Source of the DNA: Candidatus Thorarchaeota archaeon
GTDB lineage: Archaea; Asgardarchaeota; Thorarchaeia; Thorarchaeales; Thorarchaeaceae
Length of the DNA stretch: 17,203 bases
Direction of reading: 5' to 3'
Assembly (NCBI GenBank): GCA_048882045.1
Contig: JBHLRZ010000049.1
Coordinates: 1 to 17,203 of the forward strand
Under the pieces are notes generated by a model that was not told the origin of the DNA, did not search any database, and was given only the letters and a program-made list of their open reading frames with translations. A program made the position numbers and the translations under genes. Below, piece by piece: positions 13,806-13,854 of the stretch; position 1 is the first letter of the stretch; each line of letters starts with the position of its first letter.

Positions 13806-13854
13806 TCTACTTCTTTCTCAAAATCTTTGTCAGTTTTATCCATTCAAACTCCAG
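13806..13854 (-). pseudogene. Relic of the 3' end of a homolog of the HTH-HNH gene
   Basis: 39/49 nt ungapped identity to 829-877, at the same offset from CCA. It translates LEFEWIKLTKILRKK* versus LGIGWSKLTKILKQK*. Confidence 0.8.

Follow-up and report, generated by a model that had tools for sequence, protein, structure and literature searches.

The locus examined here raises the question of why 49 nt behind a partial copy of tRNA-Val read like the end of a gene that stands, on the other side of a 13-kb block, behind the intact tRNA. The window, by which we mean the whole stretch of DNA that was analysed, is the complete contig C49 (17,203 nt) of a 3.6-Mb assembly, and the nearest named homologues of its proteins are from Candidatus Thorarchaeota, in the Asgard lineage. 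The original prediction took the 49 nt for a fossil of the C-terminus of the HNH gene, left by a diverged ATPase-HNH element that had previously occupied the tRNA-adjacent position. The evidence described below indicates that the segment 13806–13854 is probably a dead remnant of a tRNA-docked HTH-HNH gene, which belonged to an earlier occupant of the site and predates the present array.

The array starts at an intact tRNA-Val(GAC) at 723–828 on the plus strand, which has a D-loop intron and lacks the canonical intron. This tRNA was read by eye; Rfam gave a partial match at 767–817, and ARAGORN, which reported no tRNA in the window, missed it because of the D-loop intron. On the minus strand, the gene for the 923-aa HTH-HNH protein (830–3601) ends one base from the CCA of this tRNA. 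The protein is acidic in its N-terminal part and has several HTH domains as well as two HNH-like modules. The upstream partner of this gene (3591–6680, minus strand) encodes a 1029-aa HerA/FtsK-like ATPase, as recognized by NCBIfam (CedD and HerA) and PADLOC (HerA and mad8) matches that were all below the curated cut-offs. Downstream of the intact tRNA there are six co-oriented copies, or stubs, of its 3′ part, and these direct repeats bound the inserted DNA. The stubs, all on the plus strand, are located at 9743–9795 (the first), 11185–11211 (R2), 13053–13105 (R3), 13781–13805 (R4), 16503–16550 (R5, the next copy of the 3′ half) and approximately 16897–16941 (R6, the last). R2 holds the 5′ part, from the anticodon loop to the T-loop, of a displaced tRNA 3′ half, and R4 holds its other part, from the T-loop to the CCA, of an older tRNA-Val with one substitution in the acceptor strand. 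The end of R2 (11185–11211) and the start of R4 (13781–13787) have a T-loop heptamer in common. The 2.57-kb block between them (11212–13780), containing a 490-aa gene, stub R3 and a UDG-family gene, therefore looks like an insertion into one older stub with a 7-bp duplication.

The relic lies directly behind R4 (13806–13854, minus strand) and comprises a spacer base, a TAG codon (13807–13809) and approximately 13–15 codons of the C-terminal helix of the HNH family. It is overlapped by a gene for an 848-aa surface protein with a C-terminal membrane anchor (13844–16390, minus strand), beyond which R5 is possibly the far end of the old element. All stubs of the window are of the type without the canonical intron. 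Across the genus the intron content of tRNA-Val varies (window; L001 1880–2019; L053–L070), with either the D-loop intron only or an additional canonical 37/38 intron, and in their anticodon and T stems the tRNA-Val alleles carry compensatory changes. No tyrosine or serine recombinase was found among the window ORFs of at least 87 aa searched with Pfam, NCBIfam or PADLOC, and the 87-aa and 79-aa ORFs abutting stubs R3 and R6 showed no BLASTP similarity.

We compared the relic with the corresponding segment behind the intact tRNA (829–877), which on the minus strand contains one spacer base, the TAG at 830–832 and the last 15 codons of the 923-aa gene. The two segments are identical at 39 of 49 positions in an ungapped alignment anchored on the base after the CCA, which fixes the register, so that no offset was searched. 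Among 200,000 shuffles of the second copy, the mean number of identities was 14.7 (SD 3.1) and the maximum was 29 of 49, which corresponds to z = 7.9 and a binomial P of approximately 1e-12. These values confirm the match as originally reported, and its significance holds against shuffled sequence. When the pyrimidine tail of approximately 15 nt that is common to all stubs was removed, 27 of the remaining 34 positions were still identical (P approximately 4e-9). On neither strand of the contig did any further 49-mer exceed 28/49, and the other four stubs lack the extension (at most 13/34). Both copies, when read on the minus strand, give a 15-codon peptide followed by TAG one base from the CCA (830–832 and 13807–13809); the peptides are exactly those given in the original prediction, as are the shared frame and stop codon. 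The reading frame of the relic is closed upstream, remains open for approximately 20 codons only and has no start codon. The relic differs from the resident tip by 10 substitutions, eight of which are non-synonymous; thus, there is no sign of selection on the relic lineage, its family-like residues aside. Because only approximately 15 codons are left, no tree can place the relic.

The history of the site is documented by a second contig of the same assembly, C91 (2,648 nt), which is 93% identical to the window at 1–207 and 93.7% identical at 13781–14434. The second region of identity starts exactly at the start of R4 (13781). In C91, a complete tRNA-Val (1880–2019) is followed directly by the relic and then by the end of the 848-aa gene, and R4 is orthologous to the 3′ end of this intact tRNA. 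C91 has no resident HNH element; it also carries an extra 376-aa gene. The N-terminal half of dut lies on a single contig end (C68) that is continued by both C49 and C91, which are therefore two alleles of one locus, and we infer from the assembly topology that they are alternative alleles from two co-assembled populations. Since tRNA-Val and the relic are contiguous in C91, the relic is older than the 13-kb block 829–13780. This arrangement, in which the relic is kept directly behind an intact tRNA-Val, supports the claim that an HNH gene once lay beside the tRNA. The original prediction counted a 49-mer behind tRNA-Val without the HNH gene against a fossil; formally C91 presents such a case, but its 49-mer is the same orthologous relic. 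It differs from the window relic at 3 of 49 nt, the same rate as in the flanks, and its Trp codon has become a TAG stop codon. On the strength of these bases, the C91 relic is in neutral decay.

The similarity between the two alleles is not uniform. The relic and the 848-aa gene have diverged between C49 and C91 to the same extent as the chromosomal dut flank, and the block 208–13781 is far more diverged from C91 (approximately 70% identity) than the flanks (93%). The segment 208–877 of the window, which spans the gene for a small membrane protein, the tRNA and the resident tip, is itself approximately 70% identical to C91 (L001 1387–2068), with outer flanks at 93–94%, and thus the arrival of the new element seems to have exchanged the tRNA and the gene upstream of it as well. 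This joint replacement of the tRNA and the membrane-protein gene seems to resemble co-conversion.

To the other side of the relic, the junction with the 848-aa gene is less simple than first proposed. The relic was said to supply the TGA stop of this gene, and the TGA (13844–13846) does lie inside the relic; its frame, however, differs from the relic's own, because the TGA is formed by the Phe-Glu codons of the relic when these are read with a shift of one base. In homologues of the 848-aa protein, the C-terminus is ...KKR plus 1–5 residues, and the window protein ends in ...KKRNTGV. One metagenomic homologue has a close ending, ...KKRNSGIS, which suggests that the ...KKRNTGV of the window may be native down to approximately 13847, and the 848-aa gene is accordingly nearly complete. 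The inner edge of the relic is ambiguous and not as sharp as it was originally drawn, with a breakpoint that falls somewhere in 13847–13860. The short CTG/GGA overlap would be compatible with a microhomology-mediated deletion, and such a flush junction might be expected from a deletion bias that is halted only by selection on a useful gene.

The same gene bears on the rival explanation that survives best, although we regard it as unlikely, namely that the relic was imported ready-made. According to this explanation, a degenerate cassette of tip, 848-aa gene and stub formed elsewhere and recombined at the tRNA or a stub, and an intact HNH gene never stood here in this lineage. Stub-bounded units do recur with the same ends, such as the cassette end found in G032, G034, G038, G042 and G053, and the diverged block 208–13781 indicates that large pieces have been exchanged at this site. 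The 848-aa gene is moreover patchy, being present in 11 of the 87 genomes of the class. Its homologues at 73–83% identity, from genomes and metagenomes, nevertheless have no tip, stub, tRNA or bounding repeat nearby, no other copy of the unit of tip and 848-aa gene was found, and an import is also hard to reconcile with a relic and 848-aa gene that match the dut flank in their C49/C91 similarity. Given that homologues occur elsewhere without a stub or an HNH gene, the 848-aa gene need not have been cargo of the lost element, as had been suggested. In one metagenomic contig of 241 kb (SDBU01000016.1, L081), a homologue of the 87-aa ORF (5687–5897) is located immediately upstream of an 848-aa homologue (6001–8523, 74% identical), and there are no stubs nearby. 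The 87-aa ORF of the window (12808–13071) starts inside R3 and belongs to a separate stub-bounded unit, in the order opposite to that in L081.

To identify what the relic encoded, we examined the C-terminal tail in ten homologues that are 24–100% identical to the 923-aa protein. Every one of them has W913, and conservation is at least 90% at L909, G910 and L916. The relic has three of these four signature residues (L909, W913 and L916), and the near-invariant G910 is replaced by Glu. Two HNH-like modules are present in every family member and locus inspected, each ending in an L-x-x-x-W-x-x-L tail; the internal module, which adjoins no tRNA, thus ends with the same helix as the C-terminal one. 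In an AF2 model of the last 105 residues (pLDDT 89.9), the tail forms the final helix. A PSSM built only from tails of other genomes was scored against the 34,330 six-frame 12-mers of the window. The relic peptide scored 19.0 bits and ranked third of 34,330, behind the two real modules, and the next best peptide scored 8.0. The homology of the tail belongs to the protein and not to the tRNA flank.

The nature of the parent protein is a separate matter. Pfam gives only HTH matches for the 923-aa protein, and its C-terminal 139 aa match no Pfam HNH family at E ≤ 0.05. No HNH model of NCBIfam or PADLOC matched in the window, and PDB sequence searches with full-length and domain profiles returned HTH repeats only or nothing relevant. 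In an alignment of 16 modules, C32, C35, H47, H54, C77 and H81 are invariant and K49 and D50 are at least 90% conserved. The paired Cys/His zinc ligands and the conserved His in a strand of the H-x-K-D-G type are thus present in the family modules. Structure matches were weak (Foldseek E ≥ 0.1, VIA Z ≤ 4.6), and nearly all top rows were HNH nucleases, among them Cas9 HNH, T5 SciA, Cap5, PacI, Gme and McrA. Judging from these models and motifs, the identity of the parent gene as an HNH nuclease is only partly established. A domain-profile search of the window's genome (G000) recovered only the two modules of the resident gene, the relic of 15 codons being too short to be detected in this way.

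We then consider the distribution of the family. A match to the C-terminal part of the protein was obtained in 33 of the 87 genomes of the class. The closest HNH genes (G031, G038, G054 and G067; L004–L007) stop no more than approximately 10 nt from the 3′ end of tRNA-Val(GAC) or read into the tRNA, and they are always antiparallel to it; more distant clades of the family adjoin other tRNAs. The tRNA-Val of the closest genomes adjoins the same dut-like gene, and at this locus tips of the HNH gene were found behind the intact tRNA-Val in G071 (34 codons, with an internal stop), G035 (51 codons) and G042 (62 codons), in each case with unrelated genes next and then a stub. The tip in G053, located behind a stub, comprises approximately 20 codons, with a stop mutation at the Trp codon. 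The tips vary in length (approximately 15, 20, 34, 51 and 62 codons), which argues for later ordinary deletions that were not site-specific and against a site-specific cut. With the intact gene in G000, G031, G038, G054 and G067 and relics in G035, G042, G053, G071 and C91, there is a presence/absence polymorphism at one conserved site among close relatives, degenerate copies included.

These genomes also limit what can be said about the lost element, which the original prediction described as an ATPase-HNH pair. The HNH part of this description is supported by the tip. The ATPase part is not: only the HNH tip survives, no trace of the ATPase gene is preserved in 13806–13854, and the HNH gene stands alone between tRNA and stub in G054, compared with G067, where it has an ATPase partner. 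The relic does not tie this core module to the origin of the array, as was further proposed: G032 (a genome 86% complete) has a tRNA-Val stub array and no match to the HNH domain.

Several arrangements were observed among these relatives that differ from that of the window. In L006 (G031:C332, approximately 1008–1045), the HNH frame has no stop before the tRNA and ends in the T-loop region of the tRNA-Val 3′ end. In a sister clade (L050, G067:C53, 1–170 and 8560–8627; L045, G054:C22, 11040–11260 and 14403–14426; L046, G038:C145, approximately 2750–2990), the HNH element carries its own complete tRNA-Val and the resident tRNA-Val is split. The element-borne tRNA-Val is of another allele, altered in both acceptor strands. 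Of the resident tRNA, the 5′ exon (23 nt, in some cases together with a piece of the D-loop intron) remains immediately upstream, and the 3′ part is found at the opposite end of the element; in G067 the breaks coincide with exon-intron junctions. In five genomes of the genus (G032, G034, G038, G042 and G053; L054:844, L058:2897, L067:692, L072:618 and L080:43), a tRNA-Val stub of the T-loop type comes immediately after the same cassette end of approximately 28 nt; this suggests that there is a second class of units, which is widespread and joins at the T-loop.

The position of all these tips behind tRNA-Val could be read in another way, with the 49 nt as an extended attachment site, or a tRNA trailer or terminator, that has a function of its own and merely overlaps the HNH frame. 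Approximately 15 pyrimidine-rich bases do follow the CCA in all stubs, and in C91 the 49-mer stands behind an intact tRNA although the HNH gene is absent. Past these 15 bases, however, the extension is found only at R4. In genomes of the genus that have no HNH gene or tip beside tRNA-Val, the 3′ flank of the tRNA bears no relation to the 49-mer, which is thus no general trailer of the tRNA, and the fossil reading is left standing. On the basis of this survey of 3′ flanks, a native tRNA-Val trailer was rejected. A functional site would also not account for a tail that is conserved as protein down to 24% identity and in an internal module away from any tRNA, or for a C91 copy that evolves like its flanks (3/49 nt) and has lost its Trp codon. 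We thus consider this explanation improbable.

There is still less to recommend a recent origin, in which gene conversion or template switching would have copied the resident tip as the present element arrived. Conversion could be promoted by the location of both copies in a single array, each preceded by similar tRNA sequence. Yet 20% of their positions differ, and the C91 allele has the relic and not the resident element. At one codon, moreover, the relic and the family consensus have Glu and the resident gene has Gly; the relic is therefore not a copy of the resident gene, and we regard this origin as very improbable. Finally, a chance similarity of two AT-rich stretches, to which the low complexity of the pyrimidine-rich sequence near the CCA might have contributed, was rejected as next to impossible, given that no shuffle exceeded 29/49 (z = 7.9), that 27/34 positions match without the shared tail and that the protein score is far above background.

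With the segment 13806–13854 as the remnant of an earlier tRNA-docked HTH-HNH gene, the following order of events can be proposed from the stubs and the C91 allele. An earlier HNH-bearing element stood directly behind tRNA-Val in the common ancestor of the C49 and C91 populations, as the arrangement of C91 shows. The body of its HNH gene would then have been lost by internal deletion or replacement, either in this lineage or before the DNA arrived here, both of which fit. The breakpoint would have fallen only a few bases away from where the 848-aa gene ends, possibly at the CTG/GGA microhomology. This gene now stops at a TGA taken from the out-of-frame Phe-Glu codons of the relic. Later, and only in the C49 lineage, approximately 13 kb would have entered at the tRNA, bringing a new tRNA 3′ half, a new HNH-ATPase pair and further stub-bounded genes, and this incoming DNA would have pushed the old tRNA 3′ half and the relic to 13781–13854. 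The relic is without function beyond supplying the stop codon of the 848-aa gene.

Integration at tRNA genes has reportedly been divided into sublocation classes by Williams in 2002. The window can be compared with archaeal and bacterial tRNA genes at which integrative elements, now decayed, have accumulated in tandem after integration into the anticodon loop or the T-loop with duplication of the 3′ part of the tRNA; tandem integration at one locus is a subject of PMC8371274. As in these elements, the 3′-half copies of the tRNA are co-oriented and start at the anticodon loop or the T-loop, the newest insertion adjoins the intact tRNA and the older ones are pushed outwards, and remnants of element genes adjoin the old junctions. 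In contrast to them, no tyrosine or serine recombinase was detected in the window, and the gene that marks the end is HTH-HNH nuclease-like and not an integrase. Another parallel is provided by the int(N)/int(C) pseudogene halves of ‘suicidal’ SSV-type integrases, which flank integrated archaeal elements (PMC8371274). In both cases a fragment of a signature gene flush against a tRNA-derived repeat is the fossil of a past integration. The int(N)/int(C) fragments are made by the integration reaction itself, as attP lies inside the integrase gene (PMC8371274), whereas in the window the HNH stop codon lies outside the tRNA sequence and the fragment comes from a later deletion. The free-standing HNH homing endonuclease MobE of phage T4, with which a definition of homing is available (PMC2790892), and SegB in the tRNA region of T4 (PMC13096335) offer a further comparison, with free-standing homing endonucleases.

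The window resembles such systems in that intact genes, truncated relics and empty sites are found at one chromosomal site among close relatives, that the occupied site carries the relic of an earlier occupant, and that the flanks near the gene are much more diverged than the distant flanks, as co-conversion would produce. The life cycle of homing endonuclease genes is said, after Goddard and Burt in 1999, to run through invasion, degeneration, loss and re-invasion. The window differs from such a cycle in that direct repeats of the tRNA 3′ half, which are not a product of simple homing, are left by its elements, and in that the HNH fold of the window protein is weakly supported, its nuclease activity and target site being putative. 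A more far-reaching reading, which we put forward only tentatively and hold to be rather doubtful, is that a putative homing-type HTH-HNH nuclease targeting tRNA-Val might drive insertion without an integrase, and that cycles of invasion, decay and re-invasion might build the stub arrays of Asgard archaea. This homing-type reading would include the lineages that bring a spare tRNA-Val and split the resident one, and would take the relics of approximately 15–62 codons in at least five genomes as its decay stage.

Taken together, the relic and C91 show one integration hotspot in an earlier and a later state, both from a single metagenome, and the relic places an occupant with an HNH gene earlier than the present 13-kb array. 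The finding is soundly described as genome archaeology, that is, as dated evidence of recurrent invasion of tRNA-Val, and not as a new mechanism. It provides background to the question of what builds the integrase-free stub arrays of Thorarchaeota, and the relic does not itself identify the machinery. What it does indicate is that this tRNA-docked family of genes repeatedly enters one and the same tRNA and is afterwards degraded through internal deletion, and such repeated invasion and decay is the pattern expected of a selfish, homing-like element.
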